Shown piece by piece: positions 1,403 through 11,468 of a stretch of 11,609 nt of DNA (position 1 is the first letter of the stretch; each line of letters opens with the position of its first letter). Location of the stretch: the IMG/VR virus record IMGVR_UViG_2802429218_000006, positions 1-11,609 of that record; one strand, 5' to 3'. The notes beneath the pieces are model-generated. The model saw only the letters and a program-made list of their open reading frames with translations. It was not told where the DNA came from and did not search any database. The translations under genes and the position numbers were made by a program. Source of the DNA: a virus (Duplodnaviria; Heunggongvirae; Uroviricota; Caudoviricetes).

Positions 1403-3058
1403 ATGATTAGTGCAAAAAACATTCTTTTCAGCAGTCGACATACTGATGCTGATGTAACTTTACATATCAATAATGTTATAAGATACCCCAAAAAATATAT
1501 GAATAATCATATCTATATATTAGATATAGACATGTATATTCAGACTGAAGACATGAAAAATCAAGCATATATAGATAATGACATTAGAAGCCCCCTGAAA
1601 ATGCTATTTATTGGAGAGGAACTAACAGAGTCAACTTTATTTGACTTATTATCCCAATCAGAAATATCGCTTCATGAAGTTAAGGTTAAATATGAATTTG
1701 ATTATATCTGTCAGATGTCAGAAGATGGATATAGATACATCAACAATAAATTAGAAACAGTCGCTTCATTATCTTTACTTAGAGCTATTAAGGATTTTGG
1801 TGTAAACTACAATATTATAAGAAACAAATCCTTTCTAAAAAAATATTCAGACAAGATATTCTCTACGTTATTACTAGATAACACTTTCAGTTCTTATGCC
1901 TTTGAAAATGGCTATAAATATTTTAATGTCGATGATGGTGCCGTTTACCAATTACAGCCCCCAACAAAATTTATTATTTATGACGAAGAAAAACAGCCGT
2001 ATAAACTTAAGATGGAGAGTCTGTTAAATATTAATATACCTATTCATGCACTAATTGGTAAGAATGGTAGCGGGAAAACCTATTTAATTAATAAAATAAT
2101 CAAACAATCTATTTCAACTGACCTAGAAATAAGATCTTCTGGCGCAGTTTTTAGTCGAATGATAGTTTTATCAAATACAATAAATGATAAGTGCTATAGA
2201 CCGGCAAATATAACCAAAAACAAATTCAAGTTAAATAACTATCATTTTGTATCGTTAACATCAGAAAAATATTATAATAAGCTTTTCCCACGAGGGAAAA
2301 AGCTAACTCTATTTTCTTTATTAGAAAAAATACAGAAACGAGATTCTAATAAGCGAGGTAACTTTGAACAGGGGGATTTGCTTGATAGAGTTACTCAAGA
2401 TATTATTCCCGAGTTTTCTTTTTCCATTAAAACAAATCTTGGGGAGCATATTTACAATAGTTTTTTAGAGTTAACTAGACAATATGGATTAGTTAATTTA
2501 AACTCAAACTTAGACTTAATTACGAGTTCAGAAATCGAATATGCATTACCTGATGAAGATATCCATTTCTATAAAAATAATGAACCCTTTACCTTAAGCT
2601 CAGGGCAATTATCTTTTTTAGTTAGCATGTTTTCTCTAATCTCAACAATAGAGAGTAATAGTCTTATACTTATAGAGGAACCAGAAAATTTTTTACACCC
2701 AAGTTTATTAACACATTTTATAAACTCACTAACACACATTCTAAGAGATACTAATTCTATCGCAATTATGGCCACCCACTCTGCTTTGGTACTTAGAGAA
2801 ATCCCTTCAGCACAAATAACAATCCTACATAGAAGAGACAATATCACCAACTATAAAACACCGAATATTGAAACATTTGGTGCCGATACTCATCAAATAA
2901 TGATAGACGTTTTTGGTGATTTATACTCTAATGCGATATTTAGAGAAGAGCTATCAAACATTGCAAAAAACAAAACAATCGATGAATTATTAGTGCAGTA
3001 TGGTGATTTACCTTCTGATGTATTAAATAAAATCATCATGGAGAAAAATTCAAAGTGA
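1403..3058 (+). CDS. ABC-type (SMC-head-like) ATPase with a ~200-aa N-terminal extension of unknown function; first gene of the candidate defence cassette
   Basis: Walker A GKNGSGKT (aa 219-226, nt 2057-2080); ABC signature LSSGQ (aa 398-402); Walker B LILIEEPENFLHP (aa 421-433, nt 2663-); H-loop ATHS (aa 457-460). Shine-Dalgarno AGGA lies 7 nt upstream of the ATG. Strongly AT-rich codon usage unlike the backbone. Confidence 0.85.
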   Translation: MISAKNILFSSRHTDADVTLHINNVIRYPKKYMNNHIYILDIDMYIQTEDMKNQAYIDNDIRSPLKMLFIGEELTESTLFDLLSQSEISLHEVKVKYEFDYICQMSEDGYRYINNKLETVASLSLLRAIKDFGVNYNIIRNKSFLKKYSDKIFSTLLLDNTFSSYAFENGYKYFNVDDGAVYQLQPPTKFIIYDEEKQPYKLKMESLLNINIPIHALIGKNGSGKTYLINKIIKQSISTDLEIRSSGAVFSRMIVLSNTINDKCYRPANITKNKFKLNNYHFVSLTSEKYYNKLFPRGKKLTLFSLLEKIQKRDSNKRGNFEQGDLLDRVTQDIIPEFSFSIKTNLGEHIYNSFLELTRQYGLVNLNSNLDLITSSEIEYALPDEDIHFYKNNEPFTLSSGQLSFLVSMFSLISTIESNSLILIEEPENFLHPSLLTHFINSLTHILRDTNSIAIMATHSALVLREIPSAQITILHRRDNITNYKTPNIETFGADTHQIMIDVFGDLYSNAIFREELSNIAKNKTIDELLVQYGDLPSDVLNKIIMEKNSK

Positions 3059-3954
3059 GAATTTTATCTAAGCCAGAGGGTATTGATGATCTACTTAATA
3101 ATATAGATCTTAACTCATCTATTGATGCCTTTTTATCGCTCGATGAACCGACTGGAATTGCTGACTTAAGAAATAAAAAAAATGATCTCTTGAACGAAAT
3201 TGAGAATTATCACACTGAGATGATTGAACGAGGTCATTTATCACATAACACGAGAAAAAACTTCTCAAAATATAAATCCATACTTGAGTGGATTTATTAT
3301 CACCCAAGTCAGCGAAGAAAAACAGACTACATAAACTCGATACGAAAACTTTACGCCCAAAGTGGAACTCTATGTCCTTACTGTGGGGTTTCTCCTTGCA
3401 GGACATTAGACCATTACTACAACAAAGCTTTATTACCACAGTTTTCATTTCTTCCTGAAAACCTTATTCCGTGCTGTGGTGATTGTAATAGAGACAAGGG
3501 AGCAAAAAAAGCCTTTAGCAAATGGAGAAGATTTGTCAATCCATTCTATGATGATTTCTCATCGTTAGAAAAAAATGAACCTCTCATATATATAATTTTC
3601 AAAGAAAGACCAAGATCTAGAATTGACATGGAATATGTAATGACAGCCAATCATAATCTAGACTTTTTAATAAGAAAACAAATAAACTATCACATTAGAA
3701 CAGTAAGAATCCCTTTCTATCATCATGAAGCCATAAGCAATTCATTTTGGAGAAACGCGAAAGACCTAATAAAGTTTAAAAAATTAGTCACTGACGGTGA
3801 TATAGATAATACAATTTATGATAAAATCATTGATGGTTTCATAGGCAAAAACAATGCTATGAATTATGACTGGGAATATATTATTAGATATTCATTAGTC
3901 AAACTTCGTATTAATCACTGGATTTATAACAGCAACCTACCAAAATTAATGTAG
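3055..3954 (+). CDS. HNH endonuclease-domain protein; second gene of the candidate defence cassette
   Basis: Zinc-finger HNH core CPYCG..LDHYY..N..CCGDCNRDKG (aa 107-148, nt 3373-3498) flanked by ~100-aa N-terminal and ~150-aa C-terminal regions of unknown function. GTG start at 3055 overlaps the TGA stop of the ATPase (GTGA), indicating translational coupling. Same AT-rich composition as the ATPase gene. Confidence 0.85.
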   Translation: MRILSKPEGIDDLLNNIDLNSSIDAFLSLDEPTGIADLRNKKNDLLNEIENYHTEMIERGHLSHNTRKNFSKYKSILEWIYYHPSQRRKTDYINSIRKLYAQSGTLCPYCGVSPCRTLDHYYNKALLPQFSFLPENLIPCCGDCNRDKGAKKAFSKWRRFVNPFYDDFSSLEKNEPLIYIIFKERPRSRIDMEYVMTANHNLDFLIRKQINYHIRTVRIPFYHHEAISNSFWRNAKDLIKFKKLVTDGDIDNTIYDKIIDGFIGKNNAMNYDWEYIIRYSLVKLRINHWIYNSNLPKLM

Positions 3955-4163: not shown

Positions 4164-4264
4164 CGCCCGCTTTGCGGGGCAGTTTTAATGCAGTTTCACT
4201 GACACGCTCAGGCCGCGCCGGGAATGGCGCGGTCTGCAGAAAATGAGGCAGGAAAACGCATGCA

Positions 4265-4297
4265 AAGCCATGCACCTTATCGATGCATGGCTTTTTT
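4265..4297 (+). terminator. Rho-independent terminator-like hairpin (10-bp perfect stem plus T6) between cos and psu
   Basis: AAGCCATGCA (4265-4274), 9-nt loop, TGCATGGCTT (4284-4293), then a T-run to 4297. The T-tail is on the plus strand, so it would stop transcripts coming from the cargo or cos side. Confidence 0.55.
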
Positions 4298-4327
4298 CAG
4301 TAAAATCGGACGGATTTTCGGGGAGTT

Positions 4328-4900
4328 TTACACAGACTGACATGATGCCAGTTGCGCACTTTTACGCGAAAAAATCATGTTCTGCGCAGGGGTGAATTTT
4401 TCACGGCTGTCATCCACCGAAGCCGCGTCAGGCCTGAATCCGATGGTCGTTAAAATGTCGCTATCCTGTGCGGAATAATTAATTTTTTCACCCTTTGCAA
4501 GCCAGGACAGAAGGGCTTCACGCAGGGCATCTGTGGCACGCTGTATGGCACAGTTTCGGGCAATGGCCGTCAGCTCACTGTAGCCCATCAGCTCCGGTGC
4601 CAGTGCCGCCGCCAGTGCTGTGCCGTGCTGCTGCATAAAATCATTCAGCCGGTCGCGGATGCTGATGTGCTGAACGGCTTCATGCGAACGAATATAACGA
4701 CCGGCGGCCTGATTCACCTGCCATTTTCTGACTTCGATAATATTGCGTAATTCGTCCAGGCGACTGACGTTTCTGCCTTCCCCGGACAGAAGCCGCAGAT
4801 ATTCCTGTTCGGCCGCAGCCAGCTCATTTTTGCGTTGCAGCCATGCTGCTTTGTTATTCTGACAGGTGTCAAAGGCCTGCTGTAAGGCTGTGCTTTCCAT
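4328..4900 (-). CDS. psu: Polarity suppression protein Psu (capsid decoration / Rho antagonist)
   Basis: 190-aa ORF, the same length as P4 Psu, in the P4 position as last gene of the sid-delta-psu operon next to cos. N-terminus MESTALQQAFDT... matches my recollection of P4 Psu. Confidence 0.85.
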   Translation of the reverse strand: MESTALQQAFDTCQNNKAAWLQRKNELAAAEQEYLRLLSGEGRNVSRLDELRNIIEVRKWQVNQAAGRYIRSHEAVQHISIRDRLNDFMQQHGTALAAALAPELMGYSELTAIARNCAIQRATDALREALLSWLAKGEKINYSAQDSDILTTIGFRPDAASVDDSREKFTPAQNMIFSRKSAQLASCQSV

Positions 4901-4973
4901 CGTTATCTCTTTCTCATCATGCTGAAGAATAAAAATACGGTGTGCGGCGACGGCCGGTGTTAACCGGCAGCCC

Positions 4974-5474
4974 TCATTCCAGACGCAGCGAATATGATTG
5001 TGTTTTTAAGCGTACTGGCGGCAGTTCCTGTTTTTCATGCAGGCTTTCTGCCAGTTCGTCCGGCGTGACCGGGCGGACAATGAAACGGTTGATGGTCTGA
5101 AGCGTTTTAAACACCAGACCACAGCCCGGATCCGTGCACACATAAAAACGCTCGGTGACTTCCTGAGACAGACGCCGCGATGTTCTTGACAGTGCAAGGC
5201 CTTTACATCTCCGACAACAATATCCGGTAACAAGCATTCTTTTCGGGCGTTTCATGCTACCGGAGGCTGACGTCAGTGAATCGCGGTATCTCTGTTTGCC
5301 TGAAATGTATTCCATTCCTGAATCTTTACAGTCAGAGAAAAAGCTTTCACTCGCTTCAAATGTCGCAGAGCAATAAATATTCCGGCACTGTGCAATCATT
5401 ATCTTGGTGCCATCGTCCATGAAATGTGCGCGACGGGTGTGAGCAACATGTCCACACGACGGGCAGTAAATCAT
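4974..5474 (-). CDS. delta: Delta, a tandem Ogr-type zinc-finger late transcription activator
   Basis: 166 aa (the P4 Delta length). The N-terminal half follows the P2 Ogr pattern (CPSCGH.AH.R..DGTK...C.N..CSATF) and a second Cys4 module sits in the C-terminal half (CCRRC...CTDPGCG). Its start overlaps the sid stop (ATGA). Confidence 0.9.
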   Translation of the reverse strand: MIYCPSCGHVAHTRRAHFMDDGTKIMIAQCRNIYCSATFEASESFFSDCKDSGMEYISGKQRYRDSLTSASGSMKRPKRMLVTGYCCRRCKGLALSRTSRRLSQEVTERFYVCTDPGCGLVFKTLQTINRFIVRPVTPDELAESLHEKQELPPVRLKTQSYSLRLE

Positions 5475-6205
5475 GACAGCAGTCCTCTGGCCTTAAGCTC
5501 TGCTCCCTGCTGGTCTATTTTGTCCTGCCACACCTTGCGCTGTGCCGGTGTGCCTGCCACCTCATAATCCATGTGCGGGAGTGTTGCCGCTGACAGTCCG
5601 GTCAGCCGGAGAACCGGCTCGCCGGTGAGGCTGATTTGCATCTGTTTAATTTTCTGTTCCAGCGATGATTTCACCTGCTGCATGACAGCCTTTTCCGGTG
5701 CGACGTAGCCCTGATGGCCGGTGGTGTTGGCGAGCGGATTTTCCTGTACCAGTATGCTCAGATGCATTGCCCGGACAAGCGCCTCACAGGTTTCATTCAG
5801 GGCGTGTTCCAGCTCATTCTCTGCATACAGACTCAGAAGGTGATGATGTGCCTTCCGGTAGGCGGTGGCCGTGCTGTCACACGCCCCTTTCAGGCGTTCA
5901 CGTTCAAAATTCAGCACCACGGCCAGATTGTCATATTCCTGTACCAGCTCCCGGCGTGCCACGCGCTCAATGTGGCGCTGTTTCAGCTCGTCGCTCAGGA
6001 CACCACCGGCTGCACGAAAGGCCGTGCGCCAGTCGTCAGCGTCGTTTCCGTCGGCCTGCGCCAGCGCATTTTTTTCCTGCTCTGCCCGTTCAATGGCCGT
6101 GACGGTCTCATCCATCAGGCGGGCGTTCTCAAGATGGGCGGCTCTGGCCTTTTCCAGTTGTGCCAGCGCGGGTTGCAGATATTCAGGGATGGTGTTGTCA
6201 GACAT
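5471..6205 (-). CDS. sid: Sid external scaffold / capsid size-determination protein
   Basis: The ATG at 6205 with a GAGGAG Shine-Dalgarno gives 244 aa, the P4 Sid length. The ORF track extends to a GTG at 6223 (250 aa), which I consider less likely. First gene of the late operon. Confidence 0.8.
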   Translation of the reverse strand: MSDNTIPEYLQPALAQLEKARAAHLENARLMDETVTAIERAEQEKNALAQADGNDADDWRTAFRAAGGVLSDELKQRHIERVARRELVQEYDNLAVVLNFERERLKGACDSTATAYRKAHHHLLSLYAENELEHALNETCEALVRAMHLSILVQENPLANTTGHQGYVAPEKAVMQQVKSSLEQKIKQMQISLTGEPVLRLTGLSAATLPHMDYEVAGTPAQRKVWQDKIDQQGAELKARGLLS

Positions 6206-6239
6206 TTTCCGGCTCCTCGTCACTTCAGGTTAAGAAAAT

Positions 6240-6295
6240 TGTGACGTACACCGGACAACAACACGACGCATTGCAGATGTGCCAGCCCTGACACA
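6240..6295. promoter_or_regulatory. Late-promoter region with two TGT-N12-ACA dyads: candidate Delta/Ogr binding sites for the divergent Psid and PLL promoters
   Basis: TGT(6240-6242)-N12-ACA(6255-6257) and TGT(6278-6280)-N12-ACA(6293-6295). The second is centred about 55 bp upstream of a plausible sid transcription start near 6230. The motif is short, so chance occurrence is possible. Confidence 0.4.
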
Positions 6296-6374
6296 GGAGA
6301 CTCATCCTCAGACCGGCAAGCCAGGAAAAGGTCGCAGGAAAAACCGGCTTACTGTTTGTTTTTTTATGTTTTAC

Positions 6375-6478
6375 TGTTCACCTCTGTTCACCATAAGAAA
6401 AAAGATAAGTAATACAGTAAGTTAAAGGGTGAGCAATCGCAGTAATGACTGTTCACCGTCTGTTCACCACTGTTCACC
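6375..6478. repeat. ori-like iteron cluster: five copies of the TGTTCACC octamer (type I iterons, alpha-binding), followed by an AT-rich stretch (6479-6570)
   Basis: TGTTCACC at 6375-6382, 6385-6392, 6450-6457, 6461-6468 and 6471-6478. The same octamer is reiterated in crr downstream of alpha, about 4.8 kb away. Confidence 0.75.
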
Positions 6479-6756
6479 CGTTCATGGACTTTTTGTGCTG
6501 TGTATTACTTTTTATTTTTATTAATTAACTGAAATAAATAAGAAAAAACAATTTGTATTTCACTATAATTTTTTCCAGCTCCTTCCAGAGCGTTTTAAAG
6601 CTATCTGGCGCTGATGTGCAAAAAACACACAGCAATTGTAAGGCTGCCGGAACAAATCCCCCCTGTTGCGTCTGCTGAAAATATTCACAAAATAAAGCGC
6701 TACCCGAAGCCGGACGGACTTATCCGGTGCTGTATGGACATTAACGAGGTAGCCCG

Positions 6757-7023
6757 ATGCAAGCTGTTTTTTCTTCCCCGTCTCCTGCCCCTGTGACGCC
6801 ACTGATGCCGCTGCCGGACATCACGCAGGAGCGTTTTTTACGTCTGCCGGAAGTGATGCACCTGTGCGGCCTGTCACGCTCGACCATCTACGAACTCATC
6901 CGTAAGGGGGAATTTCCGCCGCAGGTGAGTCTTGGCGGTAAAAATGTGGCCTGGCTGCACTCTGAAGTCACCGCATGGATGGCCGGGCGCATTGCCGGAC
7001 GCAAACGGGGGTACGACGCATGA
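6757..7023 (+). CDS. vis: Vis / AlpA-family helix-turn-helix regulator (excision and late-gene control)
   Basis: 88 aa (the size of P4 orf88/vis) with an AlpA-like HTH segment ([28 protein letters not shown]). GAGG Shine-Dalgarno 8 nt upstream. First gene of the plus-strand left operon. Confidence 0.75.
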
Positions 7024-7574
7024 TGATGCCTGTTCTGCAAAAACTCCCTTTTTCTGGCTTGCCTTTTTCCGGCATTTGCGGATATAGTTTTTCCGCTGTC
7101 GCAAAATCGGCAGCCGGGCGTAGGAACCCGAGTTACTTCAAGGCGACATATGACGCGCCATGCGTCTTTTTTTACGTCGTTGCTTCGGCACACCTGTTTT
7201 TCTGGCTGTGGTTTTTAAACCGTAGCCTCTGTCAGATAATGGTGGTCCGGGCGGGGCAGCCTTCGGGCTGGCCGGTTTCCTTGAAGGCCGGTATTCCTAC
7301 CCCCGTCCGGGCTACCACCCATGAGCGTAGGAACTCCAGTGGTAGCTGTAACTGTTACTTCAAGGAGGCTGCCATCATGGCTACAACCCTTACCCCCTCA
7401 CACCCTGAATTTGTCTTTGTGTTTGCGGCTGTCCGTCGCGCAGACCGTCATCCCCGTATCTGCATGCTTCGCACCGTCGCCGGTGATGAACGCAGCGCCC
7501 GCCGTTCCCTTGTCCGTGACTATGTGCTCTCCCTTGCTGCCCGTCTGCCGGTGGTGGAGGTGTCCCGTGCGTAA
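6975..7574 (+). CDS. Possible eta-like ORF (199 codons) that reads through the immunity-RNA region, with the kil-like ORF nested in the same frame
   Basis: A 600-nt open frame starting inside vis, upstream of the PLE-like promoter, and spanning the structured RNA region. Consistent with the nested kil/eta arrangement described for P4, but the protein is low-complexity and could be an artefact of GC-rich sequence. Confidence 0.3.
7059..7088 (+). promoter_or_regulatory. Candidate sigma-70 promoter (PLE-like) driving the immunity / left operon
   Basis: TTGCCT (7059-7064), 18-bp spacer, TATAGT (7083-7088), about 30 bp upstream of seqA. Confidence 0.45.
7118..7143 (+). promoter_or_regulatory. seqA-like target site for the immunity RNA
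   Basis: GCGTAGGAAC..TTACTTCAAGG. The two blocks are complementary to CCTTGAAG (7279-7286) and TTCCTAC (7294-7300) inside the structured RNA. Confidence 0.55.
7241..7320 (+). ncRNA. cI: CI-like immunity RNA (P4-type antisense RNA carrying seqB); boundaries approximate
   Basis: Highly structured segment: GGTGGTCCGGGCGGGG pairs with CCCCGTCCGGGCTACCACC (one G-T wobble and a 3-nt bulge), plus an internal CAGCC-TTCG-GGCTG hairpin. The internal seqB blocks are complementary to both flanking seqA and seqC. Confidence 0.5.
7325..7365 (+). promoter_or_regulatory. seqC-like target site overlapping the ribosome-binding site of the kil-like ORF
   Basis: GCGTAGGAAC (7325-7334) and TTACTTCAAGG (7355-7365) repeat the two seqA blocks. 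The second block runs straight into the AGGAGG Shine-Dalgarno of the ORF starting at 7377. Confidence 0.55.
7377..7574 (+). CDS. Small kil-like protein (65 aa); resembles the Ash/Icd-like small proteins of P4-type prophages
   Basis: Strong AGGAGG Shine-Dalgarno 8 nt upstream of the ATG. First ORF after the immunity RNA. Sequence [25 protein letters not shown]... Confidence 0.55.
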
Positions 7575-7854
7575 TAAAAAAGCCCCTCAGACCGTCTCAG
7601 CGCGTCATGACGCCCGTGAACACCTCAGCATTGAGGCTTACCATAAGCTCAACCGCGCCAGCGCCGTATCCCAGTTTGTTGGGGGTGATTTGATTCACCG
7701 TGAACTCTCCGGCCTGCATCAGCTCTACATTCCGCATATTTTCAGTTACCTGAATGAAGATATTGATTTTGTGCTGAATGAACTGAAAGCCAAAGGCCTG
7801 TGCCGCGATTTTCTCGCCCAGCAGAAAGACCGGGGAGACAGGACGCATGTTTGA
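7567..7854 (+). CDS. Epsilon-sized small protein (95 aa) with a GTG start; position and size match P4 epsilon, the derepression protein
   Basis: No in-frame ATG exists. The GTG at 7567 is preceded by GGAGG at 6-nt spacing and overlaps the stop of the kil-like ORF. Product length is exactly 95 aa. Identification is by synteny and size only. Confidence 0.45.
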
Positions 7855-8308
7855 TTTTCCCCAGCCCGGTGAGATTTACCGTTCTGCCGGTTTTCCCGAT
7901 GTGGCCGTGGTCGGCATTCTGGAAGACGGTATTCCGTGGGAAATGCCGTACCGCTGCCCGGACATTGTCTGGAACCCGTACCGCCGTAAATTCAGTATCC
8001 TTGTGCGTATCCTCGCTGACGGGCGCACCACAGACATCCCGCTGGGGCGTTTTCTGCGGGAATTTACCTGTGACCGTCCTGACCTGTTCAAACGCAGCCC
8101 CGTAAACCGGCATGCGGTACTGAAAGAAATGGCCGGAGACCCGGAATTACAGAAATGGCGGGAGAAATATCTGGATATTTACCCGCAGGACCCTGTTCCG
8201 GTCAGCCGGGCGGCACCGGTGGCGCGGGAATGGCGGGAAATTCCCCGCACGGAGCCTGACCCGGCCCCCCCCCCCCGGATAACAGTTACCGCAATTATCT
8301 GTAATTAA
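7847..8308 (+). CDS. Hypothetical protein, orf151-like by position (153 aa); contains a C12 homopolymer near its 3' end
   Basis: ATG overlaps the stop of the preceding ORF (ATGTTTGA). The C12 run at 8265-8276 encodes the PAPPP segment of the product. Confidence 0.6.
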
Positions 8309-8439
8309 AAAACGACACCCGAAAAATTAAATGTGCGTATTCGCGCAGGGATACGCACGTCTTCAGGAGACGCAGATATGTCTTATCAGTTAATGCAACC
8401 GGCACGGAATGCAGTCATCTGTCACAGGGAGGAAAGCAA

Positions 8440-8760
8440 ATGAAAACACCCTTACCGCCCGTCTTACGCGCTGCCCTTTACCGTCGCGCTGTCGCCTGTG
8501 CCTGGCTGACCGTGTGCGAACGTCAGCACCGCTACCCGCATCTCACCCTTGAGTCACTGGAGGCGGCCATCGCCGCTGAGCTGGAAGGCTTTTATCTGCG
8601 CCAGCACGGTGAGGAAAAAGGGCGCCAGATAGCCTGTGCCCTGCTGGAAGATTTAATGGAATCCGGCCCCCTGAAGGCCGCGCCGTCGCTGTCCTTTCTC
8701 GGGCTGGTTGTGATGGATGAACTCTGTGCCCGTCACATAAAAGCGCCGGTACTGCACTGA
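8440..8760 (+). CDS. cnr: cnr-sized protein (106 aa); copy-number-control candidate
   Basis: GGGAGG Shine-Dalgarno. 106 aa equals P4 cnr (orf106), and it lies immediately upstream of alpha as in P4. Identification is by synteny and size only. Confidence 0.5.
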
Positions 8761-8774
8761 AGGAGAACAACACC

Positions 8775-11108
8775 ATGAAAATGAACGTAACCGCCACCGT
8801 CAGCCATGCGCTCGGCCACTGGCCGCGTATTCTCCCGGCGCTGGGGATTCAGGTGCTGAAAAACCGTCATCAGCCCTGTCCGGTCTGTGGCGGGAGTGAC
8901 CGCTTCCGTTTTGATGACAGGGAGGGGCGCGGCACCTGGTACTGCAATCAGTGTGGTGCCGGTGACGGCCTGAAACTGGTTGAAAAGGTGTTTGGTGTTT
9001 CCCCGTCCGACGCGGCCGCAAAGGTGGCTGCCGTGACCGGCAGTCTGCCACCGGCTGACCCGGCAGTGACGGCTGCCGCCGGTGCTGAAACAGACGCTGC
9101 CCGGAAGAACGCCGCCGCACTGGCACAAACCCTGATGGCGAAAACCTGTCCCGGAACCGGTAACGCCTACCTGACCCGCAAGGGCTTTCCCGGCCGGGAA
9201 TGCCGGATGCTGACCGGCACACACAGAGCCGGTGGCGTGAGCTGGCGCGCCGGTGACCTTGTGGTGCCACTGTATGACGACAGCGGCGAACTGGTTAACC
9301 TTCAGTTAATCAGTGCTGACGGCCGTAAGCGCACCCTGAAAGGCGGACAGGTCAGGGGCACCTGTCACACCTTTGAAGGACAGAATCAGGCCGGAAAACG
9401 TCTGTGGATAGCGGAGGGATACGCGACCGCACTTACCGTGCATCACCTGACCGGTGAAACGGTGATGGTGGCGCTTTCTTCCGTGAATCTCCTTTCTCTG
9501 GCCAGCCTTGCCCGGCAGAAGCATCCGGCCTGTCAGATTGTCCTTGCCGCAGACCGTGACCTCAGCGGTGACGGCCAGAAAAAAGCCGCCGCAGCCGCAG
9601 ATGCGTGTGAAGGTGTTGTTGCCCTGCCGCCGGTCTTCGGTGACTGGAATGATGCCTTCACGCAGTACGGCGGGGAAGCCACCCGTAAGGCCATTTATGA
9701 TGCCATCCGGCCACCGGCTGAAAGCCCGTTCGACACCATGAGCGAAGCGGAGTTTTCCGCCATGAGTACCAGCGAAAAGGCCATGCGTATCTATGAGCAT
9801 TACGGCGAGGCGCTCGCGGTCGATGCCAACGGCCAGCTTCTGTCCCGTTATGAAAATGGTGTCTGGAAGGTGCTGCCACCACAGGACTTTGCCCGGGATG
9901 TGGCCGGGCTGTTTCAGCGGCTGCGTGCGCCGTTCTCCTCCGGGAAGGTGGCCTCCGTGGTGGACACCCTGAAGCTGATTATTCCGCAGCAGGAAGCCCC
10001 CTCCCGCCGCCTGATTGGCTTTCGTAACGGCGTGCTCGACACGCAGAACGGCACGTTCCACCCGCACAGTCCGTCACACTGGATGCGCACCCTGTGCGAT
10101 GTGGATTTCACCCCGCCGGTGGAAGGGGAAACGCTGGAAACCCACGCCCCCGCGTTCTGGCGCTGGCTTGACCGTGCCGCCGGTGGCCGTGCGGAAAAAC
10201 GCGACGTGATTCTGGCCGCACTGTTTATGGTGCTGGCAAACCGCTACGACTGGCAGCTCTTTCTGGAGGTGACCGGTCCCGGCGGCAGCGGCAAAAGTAT
10301 CATGGCCGAAATAGCCACCCTGCTGGCCGGGGAGGATAACGCCACGTCGGCCACCATCGAGACGCTGGAATCCCCGCGTGAACGTGCCGCGTTAACTGGC
10401 TTCTCACTGATACGCCTGCCGGACCAGGAAAAATGGAGCGGCGACGGTGCCGGACTCAAGGCCATCACCGGCGGCGATGCGGTGTCCGTTGACCCGAAAT
10501 ACCGGGATGCATACTCCACGCATATCCCGGCGGTAATTCTGGCCGTGAACAATAACCCGATGCGCTTCACCGACCGCAGCGGCGGCGTGTCACGCCGGCG
10601 GGTGATTATTCACTTCCCGGAACAGATAGCCCCGCAGGAGCGCGACCCGCAGCTTAAGGACAAAATCACCCGCGAGCTGGCGGTCATCGTGCGTCACCTG
10701 ATGCAGAAGTTCAGCGACCCGATGCTCGCCCGGTCACTGCTTCAGTCCCAGCAGAACTCAGACGAGGCACTGAACATCAAACGGGATGCCGACCCGACGT
10801 TTGATTTTATCGGCTATCTGGAAACCCTGCCGCAGACCAGCGGCATGTATATGGGGAACGCCAGTATCATCCCGCGTAATTACCGTAAATACCTCTATCA
10901 CGCCTATCTGGCCTACATGGAGGCAAACGGCTACCGGAATGTACTCAGTCTGAAAATGTTCGGGCTGGGGCTGCCGGTGATGCTGAAGGAATACGGACTG
11001 AATTACGAGAAGCGCCATACCAAACAGGGGATACAGACCAACCTGACGCTGAAAGAGGAAAGCTACGGCGACTGGCTGCCAAAATGTGACGACCCTGCAA
11101 CAACCTGA
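8775..11108 (+). CDS. alpha: Alpha primase-helicase replication protein
   Basis: 777 aa (the P4 alpha length). N-terminal zinc-ribbon primase motif CPVCGGSDRFRFDD..WYCNQCG, a TOPRIM-like region, and a C-terminal helicase Walker A GPGGSGKS. AGGAG Shine-Dalgarno upstream. Confidence 0.92.
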   Translation: MKMNVTATVSHALGHWPRILPALGIQVLKNRHQPCPVCGGSDRFRFDDREGRGTWYCNQCGAGDGLKLVEKVFGVSPSDAAAKVAAVTGSLPPADPAVTAAAGAETDAARKNAAALAQTLMAKTCPGTGNAYLTRKGFPGRECRMLTGTHRAGGVSWRAGDLVVPLYDDSGELVNLQLISADGRKRTLKGGQVRGTCHTFEGQNQAGKRLWIAEGYATALTVHHLTGETVMVALSSVNLLSLASLARQKHPACQIVLAADRDLSGDGQKKAAAAADACEGVVALPPVFGDWNDAFTQYGGEATRKAIYDAIRPPAESPFDTMSEAEFSAMSTSEKAMRIYEHYGEALAVDANGQLLSRYENGVWKVLPPQDFARDVAGLFQRLRAPFSSGKVASVVDTLKLIIPQQEAPSRRLIGFRNGVLDTQNGTFHPHSPSHWMRTLCDVDFTPPVEGETLETHAPAFWRWLDRAAGGRAEKRDVILAALFMVLANRYDWQLFLEVTGPGGSGKSIMAEIATLLAGEDNATSATIETLESPRERAALTGFSLIRLPDQEKWSGDGAGLKAITGGDAVSVDPKYRDAYSTHIPAVILAVNNNPMRFTDRSGGVSRRRVIIHFPEQIAPQERDPQLKDKITRELAVIVRHLMQKFSDPMLARSLLQSQQNSDEALNIKRDADPTFDFIGYLETLPQTSGMYMGNASIIPRNYRKYLYHAYLAYMEANGYRNVLSLKMFGLGLPVMLKEYGLNYEKRHTKQGIQTNLTLKEESYGDWLPKCDDPATT

Positions 11109-11124
11109 CCATCATGACTCATCT

Positions 11125-11149
11125 GACCGGCATCTGCCGGTCTTTTTTT
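11125..11149 (+). terminator. Rho-independent terminator downstream of alpha
   Basis: GACCGGC (11125-11131), loop ATCT, GCCGGTC (11136-11142), then T7 (11143-11149): a perfect 7-bp stem. Confidence 0.8.
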
Positions 11150-11166
11150 ATCCCTGAATTCCCCGA

Positions 11167-11468
11167 AGGTGAACAATCCACTGTTCACCCTTCACCGTAT
11201 ATTCACTCGTTATCACACTGAAATTAAAAGAGAAAAACGAAAGGTGAACAGTGTGAACAATCAAATCAAAAAAAACTTTTTTTCTCCCTGTGTGATTTCA
11301 GTACGGGGGATTAATCACCGGTATGAGTCACACCGGCAGAATGCCGGAGGTGAAGAATCGAATGTTCACCCTTCACCCATTATTCACTACCTATCATACT
11401 GAAATAAAAGGAGAAAAAAGAAAGGTGAACAGTGTGAACAGTTCTTTCGAAAAAAAATTTTTTTCCTG
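11167..11468. repeat. crr (cis replication region): two ~121-bp direct repeats (11167-11287 and 11348-11468, period 181 bp), each carrying TGTTCACC / GGTGAACA iterons and ending in an A8/T8 tract
   Basis: The repeats align along their whole length with a few substitutions. Iterons at 11168-11175, 11182-11189 and 11243-11250, plus the equivalent positions in the second copy. Confidence 0.8.

Follow-up and report, generated by a model that had tools for sequence, protein, structure and literature searches.

The immunity module located in the window (the entire stretch of 11,609 nucleotides of DNA that was analysed) can be considered, with a probability of about 90%, an intact antisense RNA switch of the P4 type, residing within a P4-like satellite prophage and working as in P4. 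Systems of this kind are already known; compared with P4, this copy is a different allele, in which the changes in seqA, seqB, and seqC are matched. The explanation is based on the set of elements present, the fold of the RNA, the accessibility, complementarity, and covariation of its pairing blocks, the conservation of the open reading frames, and homology to P4. From what the literature reports for P4, it is expected by analogy that the CI RNA is expressed and is processed by RNase P and PNPase, and that transcription ends at t1, t4, and timm; the cross-immunity phenotype is predicted on the same grounds.

Sequence comparison gave about 97% identity to satellite phage P4 over positions 4164-11463 of the window, and 96-97% identity in the DNA flanking the immunity module. 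The window shares with P4 (X51522 / NC_001609) the order and spacing of PLE, seqA, t1, cI (CI RNA, with seqB), seqC, kil/eta, and timm, as well as matches to both RF01695 and RF01394, the two-block complementarity of three sites, and the preserved eta frame. It differs from P4 in the integrase and cargo region and also in the spacer between t1 and CI, where 45 nt fewer are present and the identity falls to 32%. A tRNA scan found no attachment-site tRNA in the window. The features of the module are collected in Table 1.

Table 1. Features of the immunity module, with their positions in the window.
Feature	Position	Strand	Details
Eta-type reading frame	6975..7574	+	in frame with kil; reads through PLE, leader, CI gene, and seqC
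PLE-type sigma-70 promoter	7059..7088	+	TTGCCT, 18-nt spacer, TATAGT; promoter scan
Leader RNA ('seqA RNA' equivalent, IsrK homologue)	7095..7172	+	RF01394
seqA target	7120..7143	+	block 2' GTAGGAA 7120-7126; block 1' CTTCAAGG 7136-7143; exact complements of seqB
Intrinsic terminator	7152..7173	+	GACGCG CCA TGCGTC, then T7; terminator scan
CI (C4-family) antisense RNA gene	7235..7322	+	RF01695
seqB recognition element	7278..7300	+	block 1 (U)CCUUGAAG, hairpin-2 loop 7278-7286; block 2 UUCCUAC, 3' junction strand 7294-7300
seqC target	7323..7366	+	block 2' 7327-7333 in hairpin; block 1' CUUCAAGGA 7358-7366; inverted repeats
GUGGUAGC inside seqC	7339..7346	+	can pair with 7311-7318, in the 3' strand of the CI outer stem
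kil translation-initiation region	7363..7379	+	AGGAGG 7363-7368; ATG 7377-7379
kil, Icd-like cell-division inhibitor, 65 aa	7377..7574	+	NF033153, 76.1 bits

The hexamers and the spacer of the promoter are identical to those of PLE in P4, and its transcript would start near 7095, where the match to the isrK model begins. The leader RNA scores 70.5 bits against RF01394 (gathering score 50; E = 8.7e-14), the match covering the whole isrK model, positions 1-77 of 77, with its terminator. Across the relatives, a set of 124 distinct modules from Enterobacterales, the leader hairpin H1 (7095-7101/7108-7114) is 99.7% paired, and the hairpin H2 (7115-7118/7127-7130), which carries CGUAGGAA in its loop, is 100% paired; on the 3' side of H2 there is a single-stranded linker and then the terminator. 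The probability of being unpaired in the predicted leader fold is 0.98 for block 2' of seqA and 0.66 for block 1'. The terminator, corresponding to that of IsrK and 96% identical to P4, is presumably the t1 of P4 (after Briani et al. 2000); its stem is 96.9% paired across the relatives, and in 35 loci a GC pair is swapped for CG.

A preliminary description of this DNA had proposed a strongly structured segment of about 80 nt, to be probed by RNA folding and by a covariance-model search for the P4 CI RNA, and both analyses bore it out. The CI gene scores 86.1 bits against RF01695 (gathering score 45; E = 2.7e-16; model positions 1-87 of 87). It folds into a 17-bp outer stem (7240-7256/7301-7317) enclosing hairpin 1 (7257-7261/7266-7270) and hairpin 2 (7271-7275/7288-7292). 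Counted between the outer ends of the stem, the RNA has 78 nt (7240-7317), and by the Rfam span 88 nt; the folding energy of the 88-nt segment 7235-7322 is -53.3 kcal/mol (z = -5.0), and none of 200 shuffles was as stable. Among the 124 relatives pairing in the outer stem reaches 99.9%, while in hairpin 1 four of the five pairs have changed on both sides. The flanking repeat copies reported earlier, GCGTAGGAAC (7118-7127 and 7325-7334) and GTTACTTCAAGG (7132-7143 and 7354-7365), were found again, and an inverted-repeat search returned their internal complements, CCTTGAAG at 7279-7286 and TTCCTAC at 7294-7300. The preliminary description had made its reading depend on seqB blocks that are accessible and exactly complementary, and they are both: in the predicted fold TTCCTAC has a mean unpaired probability of 1.00 and CCTTGAAG one of 0.70, with values of 0.98-1.00 at the central loop bases of the latter, and the complements are exact. 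The motif GTAGGAA-N(5-30)-CTTCAAGG has exactly three matches in the 11.6-kb window, at 7120-7143 and 7327-7365 on the plus strand and at 7279-7300 on the minus strand, while its chance expectation, estimated from 200 dinucleotide-preserving shuffles, is 0.00; seqA and seqC each represent the motif and seqB its complement.

Block 2' of seqC is presented by the hairpin GAG-CGUAGGAA-CUC (7323-7336), whose three base pairs are 99.5% paired across the relatives, with two pairs changing on both sides. The pairing of seqC with block 1 of seqB comprises 9 nt (7358-7366 with 7278-7286); it reaches 7366, so that four bases, AGGA, of the kil Shine-Dalgarno sequence would be covered, in agreement with the earlier remark that the downstream repeat copy overlaps the AGGAGG of the next open reading frame. 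That frame is indeed kil, the first translated gene of the left operon, as its NF033153 match indicates; it differs from P4 at only two aligned positions within the gene, and its initiation region is identical to that of P4. An open reading frame of 63-65 aa occupies the kil position in 131 of the 143 parsed relatives. In the predicted free fold of the seqC-kil region the target blocks have unpaired probabilities of 0.41 and 0.42 and the Shine-Dalgarno sequence of 0.19; since all are partly paired, the translation of kil may be limited even without CI. The Rho-dependent site timm of P4 is reportedly located in kil (Forti et al. 1999). The eta frame has two candidate starts, ATG at 6975 and ATGATGATG at 7020-7028, and in 137 of 143 distinct relatives it stays open over 280 nt or more ahead of the kil ATG, compared with 1% for the other two frames. 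Eta translation reportedly shields PLL transcripts from termination (Forti et al. 1999). The eta frame running through the RNA gene, the t1 terminator after seqA, and the coordinated changes at three sites relative to P4 are all additions to the preliminary description.

It is also worth mentioning that the middle of seqC could pair with the 3' strand of the outer stem of CI. The resulting alternative helix (7311-7318/7339-7346) is 99.8% paired over the 124 loci, with slid controls at 24-72%, and three of its eight pairs show double-sided changes; its covariation is stricter than that of the lower stem of CI itself. This pattern hints at an attenuator-like or processing switch, which is not known to be part of the P4 model. 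Two other candidate pairings were rejected. The sequence GGCAGCC, present in the leader (7109-7115) and in CI hairpin 1 (7255-7261), can pair with 7366-7373 in the kil initiation region and is 89-92% paired across the relatives; the changes in hairpin 1 are uncompensated, and this pairing is thus explained by conservation. A simple hairpin in seqC, 7341-7346/7354-7359, is only 75.6% paired across the relatives.

The comparison of the relatives bears directly on the pairings in trans. Over 124 loci the seqA:seqB helices are 99.5% (block 2') and 98.7% (block 1') paired, whereas the slid controls gave 33-52%, and the pairs are changed on both sides at six of seven and six of eight positions, respectively, 12 of 15 in total. 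The seqB:seqC helices are 100% and 97.0% paired over the same number of loci (blocks 2' and 1'), with double-sided changes at six of seven and seven of nine positions, 13 of 16 in total. Taken together, both sides change at 25 of the 31 positions of the trans helices, with 97-100% of the cells paired, which argues that the seqA:seqB and seqB:seqC pairings are under selection. All four trans helices are perfect in 111 of the 124 distinct relatives; among the remaining 13, which fail in at least one helix, L027 and L038 have a deletion in block 1' of seqC.

The RNA immunity mechanism of P4 is summarised in PMC4825925. For the module of the window the following course of events is proposed. Constitutive transcription from PLE would yield a leader transcript comprising seqA, t1, the precursor of a stable RNA of about 80 nt (CI, 7240-7317), and seqC. 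CI would present the single-stranded seqB blocks, in the loop of hairpin 2 and in the 3' junction strand, and on nascent PLE transcripts these would base-pair with seqA and seqC, each a target made up of two blocks. Pairing with seqA would favour a stop at t1, by which CI would limit its own synthesis. Pairing with seqC would hide the kil ribosome-binding site, the untranslated RNA then being terminated at t4 and at the Rho-dependent timm in kil; as a consequence of this termination, epsilon, cnr, and the alpha primase would stay unexpressed and the element dormant. Transcripts started upstream, at PLL, would be translated as eta across the whole region and would thereby escape the block.

The part played by the leader RNA (7095-7172) could be wider than that of a target. 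IsrK, an Hfq-binding sRNA of the Salmonella Gifsy-1 prophage (RF01394) and a structural homologue of the P4 SeqA RNA, is located upstream of the C4-like STnc1160 RNA, just as the leader of the window is located upstream of CI, and is described as activating in trans the translation of the downstream frames orf45 and anrP, leading to growth arrest (PMC4825925). For P4-type elements, this sequence is presented as a target of the antisense RNA (seqA). By extension, the leader itself might act in trans, either as a decoy of CI or as an opener of a downstream ribosome-binding site, within a two-RNA derepression switch. The isrK covariance match from end to end, terminator included, is in line with such a role, as is the presence of the same blocks in seqA and seqC, which would set a free seqA RNA in competition with seqC for binding to CI. 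The authors of the IsrK study proposed sequestration of STnc1160 (PMC4825925), and in the P4-like prophages of S. Typhi it is the IsrK-like element, not C4 alone, that scores as required (PMC3632133). Against this, seqA of P4 is described as a cis target of CI-dependent termination and co-expression of STnc1160 left the toxicity of IsrK unrelieved (PMC4825925), and the sequence holds nothing to tell a decoy from a target. A trans-acting leader appears possible but rather unlikely, and could coexist with the cis-acting role of seqA in the P4-type switch.

It is far less probable that immunity is due to a protein product of the long open reading frame, as public records would have it: X51522 annotates a 137-aa 'cI gene product' in this region, RefSeq NC_001609 a 'transcriptional repressor', and PGAP labels the locus 'ash family protein', residues 37-146 of the eta frame matching Pfam PF10554 ('Ash'). 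The frame is conserved in 137/143 relatives, but this is accounted for by eta, whose translation reportedly protects PLL transcripts from termination. A protein also leaves unexplained why the positions that vary do so jointly, as RNA base pairs between three separate sites; the covariance-model scores are strong, PGAP itself flags the coding sequence as an incomplete pseudogene, and P4 genetics puts immunity in RNA (PMC4825925). The 'transcriptional repressor' of NC_001609 is the translated RNA region. No family of the CI/Cro type was detected among the ten open reading frames scanned, the sole helix-turn-helix protein being the AlpA/Vis-like ORF88, and immunity by a protein repressor of the lambda CI or P2 C type was not recognised in this set. 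Together with the covariation of the RNA pairings, these results side with the original proposal of immunity based on RNA and not on a protein repressor. That the module is a decayed, non-functional remnant, or that its repeats are coincidental, is rejected as highly improbable, even though many P4-like prophages are cryptic and 13 of the 124 relatives, such as L027 and L038, have an imperfect trans helix: every block in the window is perfectly complementary, the promoter hexamers, t1, the eta frame, and kil with its Shine-Dalgarno sequence and ATG are intact, the chance expectation of the motif is nil, 111 relatives are perfectly paired, and 121 records of complete E. coli genomes contain the same 291 bp at ≥99% identity, E. 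coli isolate 58 (NZ_OW968011) having them at 100% identity.

Within the P4-type RNA switch, the allele of the window differs from that of P4 in a coordinated manner. The seqB blocks of P4 read CCUGUGAA (block 1) and UUCUCAC (block 2), those of the window CCUUGAAG and UUCCUAC, and seqA and seqC carry the matching changes. Since the differences in seqA, seqB, and seqC compensate one another, the allele of the window is probably heteroimmune with P4: repression should be exerted on the element itself and on identical elements, with none expected between it and P4 in either direction. The predicted duplex energies, which leave aside intramolecular structure and kinetics, so that heteroimmunity with P4 is only a prediction, are -35.8 and -32.4 kcal/mol for the cognate pairs and -19.2 to -25.6 kcal/mol for the cross pairs with P4, the cross-type duplexes being 7-18 kcal/mol weaker than the cognate ones. 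A precedent for heteroimmune alleles is the P4-like retronphage phiR73, which reportedly has the same RNA immunity design with its own specificity determinants (Sabbattini et al. 1996, Virology 216:389; cited in PMC7567579). While phiR73 carries a retron, none was found in the window.

The 124 distinct modules represent 51 specificity types. Over 158 loci, block 1 occurs in about 27 variants and block 2 in about nine, which are combined into about 50 types; in every type the changes in seqA, seqB, and seqC go together, and reassortment of the blocks is seen between lineages. In the window, a foreign immunity cassette of about 280 bp seems to have been recombined into a P4 backbone. Diversifying selection on heteroimmunity, if it operates, would be expected to produce such a pattern of types, as in the case of phage repressor-operator types. 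Among satellites sharing one genome, one of only eight pairs, a sample of too little statistical power, was of the same type, the background same-type rate being 3-9%. It can be suggested tentatively, and with some doubt, that a modular RNA address code of two reassorting blocks is in use among the P4-like satellites of Enterobacterales, the window holding a recombined foreign cassette and the alternative helix serving as a switch.

RNAs of the same Rfam family as the CI of the window, RF01695, are also found outside the satellites: C4 of P1/P7 (ImmI: c4-icd-ant) and CB of N15/phiKO2. As in the P4-type design, these are processed from the leader of the operon that they control. Similarly to the window, their two-block loops pair with an upstream and a downstream target, the latter overlapping the ribosome-binding site of an Icd-like gene; DNA similarity to the window over the CI-kil part was found in phiKO2, D6, and Stx phages. 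In P1/P7 and N15/phiKO2, however, the controlled product is an antirepressor and the primary immunity is provided by a protein repressor, whereas in the element of the window, which has no ant gene, the RNA system would be the sole immunity, controlling the replication genes.

The allele of the window is common, as the 121 E. coli records indicate, in which its sole annotation is that of an "ash family" pseudogene. P4-like satellites in general are very common, matches to the 291-bp query being present in 1361 of 5426 complete E. coli genomes, and they also carry antiviral cargo. For the window the main gain is a correct annotation, in which the dormancy switch is an RNA, as opposed to the labels of "ash family" pseudogene and "transcriptional repressor" protein. 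More broadly, the immunity type of a satellite would decide between mutual exclusion and tolerance. A catalogue of co-varying seqA/seqB/seqC types would make cross-immunity predictable from sequence, would account for which satellites are able to share a cell, and would allow orthogonal RNA repressor-target pairs to be built.

Positions 4164-11463 of the window are ~97% identical to satellite phage P4 (X51522, reverse strand), and the first 4.1 kb, which carries the integrase and the cargo, is non-P4 sequence. This part without P4 similarity contains two overlapping ORFs (1403-3954, + strand), located after the integrase (175-1362) and before psu (4328-4900) and encoding a 551-aa AAA_21/AAA_15 ATPase, PtuA-like, and a 299-aa protein without a Pfam match; in PADLOC, the pair matches PDC-M01A/B, a candidate defence system (1.5e-48 and 7.1e-27). 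Within the P4-like part, the preliminary description had recognized a P4-type RNA immunity module, and correctly so: every defining feature that can be tested on sequence is present, and the module is the known system in a new allele. The suggested covariance-model search identified CI as a C4 antisense RNA (Rfam RF01695, 86.1 bits, 7235-7322), and additionally an isrK RNA (RF01394, 70.5 bits) was found at 7095-7172. P4 itself is matched by both Rfam families at homologous positions. IsrK is described as structurally homologous to the P4 SeqA RNA in PMC4825925, and Barquist et al. likewise equated IsrK with seqA, the upstream target of the CI recognition element seqB, and C4 with CI (PMC3632133).

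Features of the immunity module in the window
Feature	Position	Strand	Basis
PLE (leader promoter), TTGCCT-18-TATAGT	7059-7088	+	promoter scan; hexamers and spacer identical to P4
Leader hairpin H1	7095-7114	+	pairing across relatives
Leader hairpin H2; seqA block 2' in loop CGUAGGAA	7115-7130	+	
seqA block 1', single-stranded	7136-7143	+	complementarity and unpaired probability
Intrinsic terminator with T7 (P4 t1, IsrK terminator)	7152-7173	+	terminator scan; pairing across relatives
Spacer	7174-7234	+	P4 alignment
CI RNA	7235-7322	+	Rfam and fold
seqC: 3-bp hairpin with same CGUAGGAA loop as H2, then block 1' over Shine-Dalgarno	7323-7366	+	
kil, 65 aa, Icd-like (NF033153)	7377-7574	+	
Repeat GCGTAGGAAC	7118-7127 and 7325-7334	+	repeat search
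Repeat GTTACTTCAAGG	7132-7143 and 7354-7365	+	repeat search
seqB complements CCTTGAAG and TTCCTAC, between repeat copies	7279-7286 and 7294-7300		inverted-repeat search

All strings previously quoted for the repeats and their complements were found in place. The bipartite pattern GTAGGAA-N(5-30)-CTTCAAGG occurs three times in the window (twice on the + strand, once on the - strand) and never in 200 shuffles of it. For the CI segment (7235-7322) the folding energy is -53.3 kcal/mol (z = -5.0), with seqB block 2 wholly unpaired (P = 1.00) and block 1 in the loop of hairpin 2 (mean unpaired probability 0.70; central bases 0.98-1.00). The seqB blocks are thus both exactly complementary to their targets and accessible, and the objection that they might lack one or the other property, checked by folding and alignment, does not hold. 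As had also been claimed, the downstream copy overlies the AGGAGG of kil (7363-7368; start ATG at 7377), the seqC pairing extending to 7366.

Relatives were retrieved by conserved-flank patterns from which the variable blocks were kept out, giving 76 IMG/VR contigs and 110 genome loci (from Erwinia, Pantoea, Serratia, Yersinia, Edwardsiella, Klebsiella, Kosakonia, Rahnella, and others), 158 with a usable region; 124 distinct regions were aligned for the helix statistics. The number of seqB types was 49 in the first parse and 51 in the aligned set, and in nearly all of them seqA and seqC contain exact complements of their own seqB blocks at fixed offsets. Between seqA and seqB, 99.5% of the cells are paired in block 2 (7 pairs, 6 with two-sided changes) and 98.7% in block 1 (8 pairs, 6 with two-sided changes); between seqB and seqC the values are 100% for block 2 (7 pairs, 6 two-sided) and 97.0% for block 1 (9 pairs, 7 two-sided). 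When the partner was slid by 1-3 columns as a control, pairing fell to 33-52%, and the covariation score, 0.39-0.67 in register, to at most 0.17. Since the trans helices are paired and co-vary over the 124 regions and are lost when slid, the three-site RNA pairing is strongly supported as the selected function. All four trans helices are perfect in 111 of the 124 rows, and the window module is not among the imperfect ones. Examples of broken modules are those of the IMG/VR loci L027 (6936-7260) and L038 (6846-7170), which have a deletion in seqC block 1'; with CCTATGAC as seqB block 1 and merely partial complements in seqA, these two are probably inactive or drifting.

Identity between the window and P4 is 97% in the left flank including PLE, 91% at the leader start, 71% in seqA, 96% in t1, 32% in the spacer, 77% in CI, 68% in seqC, and 97% from kil onward. 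This mosaic over 7095-7370, with flanks and t1 at 96-97% and seqA, spacer, CI and seqC at 32-77%, suggests a recombined immunity cassette. The window spacer is 45 nt shorter than that of P4; by eye, it resembles the short-spacer versions aligned from other Enterobacterales. The substitutions in seqA, seqB, and seqC compensate each other: P4 has GTGAGAA...TTCACAGG in seqA and seqC and CCTGTGAA...TTCTCAC in seqB, whereas the window has GTAGGAA...CTTCAAGG and CCTTGAAG...TTCCTAC, respectively. Duplexfold, which takes no account of intramolecular structure, predicts duplex energies of -35.8 and -32.4 kcal/mol for the self pairs of the window element and of -36.2 and -37.5 for those of P4; the cross pairs are weaker (-19.2 to -25.6 kcal/mol), and therefore the window element and P4 are predicted to be heteroimmune. 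Over 124 loci the mean energies are ~-34/-33 for self pairs, -28 with one block different, and -24 with both different. Specificity variants have already been described (phiR73, Sabbattini 1996, as cited in PMC7567579), and a text search of the survey of P4-like satellites (PMC8628076) found no mention of RNA; older or subscription literature aside, the breadth of the repertoire may be undescribed.

The module has the sequence parts, structure, accessibility, complementarity, and covariation of the P4 system, and is homologous to it; the P4 account is the best-supported one for its expression, processing, termination, and immunity phenotype, as we infer them. That account is summarised in PMC4825925 and reportedly goes back to Deho (1992), Sabbattini (1995), Forti (1995, 1999, 2002), and Briani (2000). 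Transcripts from PLE would be processed to CI, whose seqB, pairing with seqA, would enhance t1 and so make CI synthesis self-limited. Pairing of CI with seqC would block kil translation, leading to termination at t4 and the Rho-dependent timm and leaving the replication genes silent, while transcripts from the further upstream promoter PLL would escape the block through translation as eta. An extra layer, in which the t1-terminated leader would, in the manner of IsrK, be a trans-acting decoy or activator, is possible but less likely than not.

As in the eta arrangement described for P4, the kil frame is open through seqC, CI, and the leader as far upstream as 6975, and it stays intact despite the 45-nt length difference from P4. 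Among 143 distinct relatives, 137 keep the kil-continuous frame open over 280 nt or more ahead of the kil ATG; the figure for the other two frames is 1%. Translation of eta from PLL is said to shield PLL transcripts from termination (Forti et al., 1999), and the conserved frame fits such protection. Because the frame through the RNA region stays open, a protein family is recorded here in databases: Pfam PF10554 'Ash' matches residues 37-146, covering the translated leader, CI, and seqC. PGAP gives the locus as an incomplete 'ash family protein' pseudogene (7537-7863 in E. coli isolate 58), and P4 has a 'transcriptional repressor' in RefSeq NC_001609 and a 'cI gene product' in X51522; in the one E. 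coli record inspected no ncRNA or RNA gene feature is annotated at the locus.

A segment within seqC, 7339-7346 (GUGGUAGC), is the complement of 7311-7318, in the 3' strand of the outer stem of CI. The conserved alternative helix so formed, absent from the minimum-free-energy fold, has 99.8% pairing across 124 loci and two-sided changes at 3 of its 8 pairs, and co-varies more strictly than the lower CI stem, whose 5' strand accommodates the same changes through G-U wobble only. It is incompatible with that stem and with the weakly supported seqC hairpin (75.6% paired), and could act as a switch of the attenuator type or in processing; just two or three independent events may underlie the double changes. 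GGCAGCC, present in H1 (3' arm, 7109-7115) and in CI hairpin 1 (5' arm, 7255-7261), is complementary to GGCUGCC (7366-7373) between the kil Shine-Dalgarno and AUG. This pairing is 89-92% conserved; it was rejected as a covariation-supported helix, hairpin 1 changing without compensation.

The window allele is not rare, since CI is 100% identical in five IMG/VR contigs and the 291-bp module occurs at ≥99% identity in 121 complete E. coli genome records. In one of these, E. coli isolate 58 (NZ_OW968011, 2074-11617), an identical 291-bp module lies in a P4-like element adjoining tRNA-Thr, between the proA and pao genes. Where the window has the PDC-M01 pair, that element has a HEPN-domain cargo gene, so that one immunity allele travels with different cargo. 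A soil MAG contig (JAGTSE010000036) has two P4-type modules ~7 kb apart (398-416 and 7342-7360) of different specificity types, GTCCATTGAG/CTGCTAA and TTCCTTGAAG/CTGCAAA, which may be tandem satellites. The window CI shares its RNA family with C4 of P1 and P7 and with the N15/phiKO2 RNA, and those phages likewise have DNA similarity in the CI-kil part. The CI-kil match falls on features labelled Rha or antirepressor in the Stx-converting and mEp460-type records. In the phage collection the CI-kil segment (7235-7520) shows 68-78% DNA similarity to the N15-like Klebsiella phages phiKO2 and 48ST307, to the P1-like D6 and JL22, and to many Stx-converting phages; the C4-Icd cassette therefore occurs widely outside satellites.
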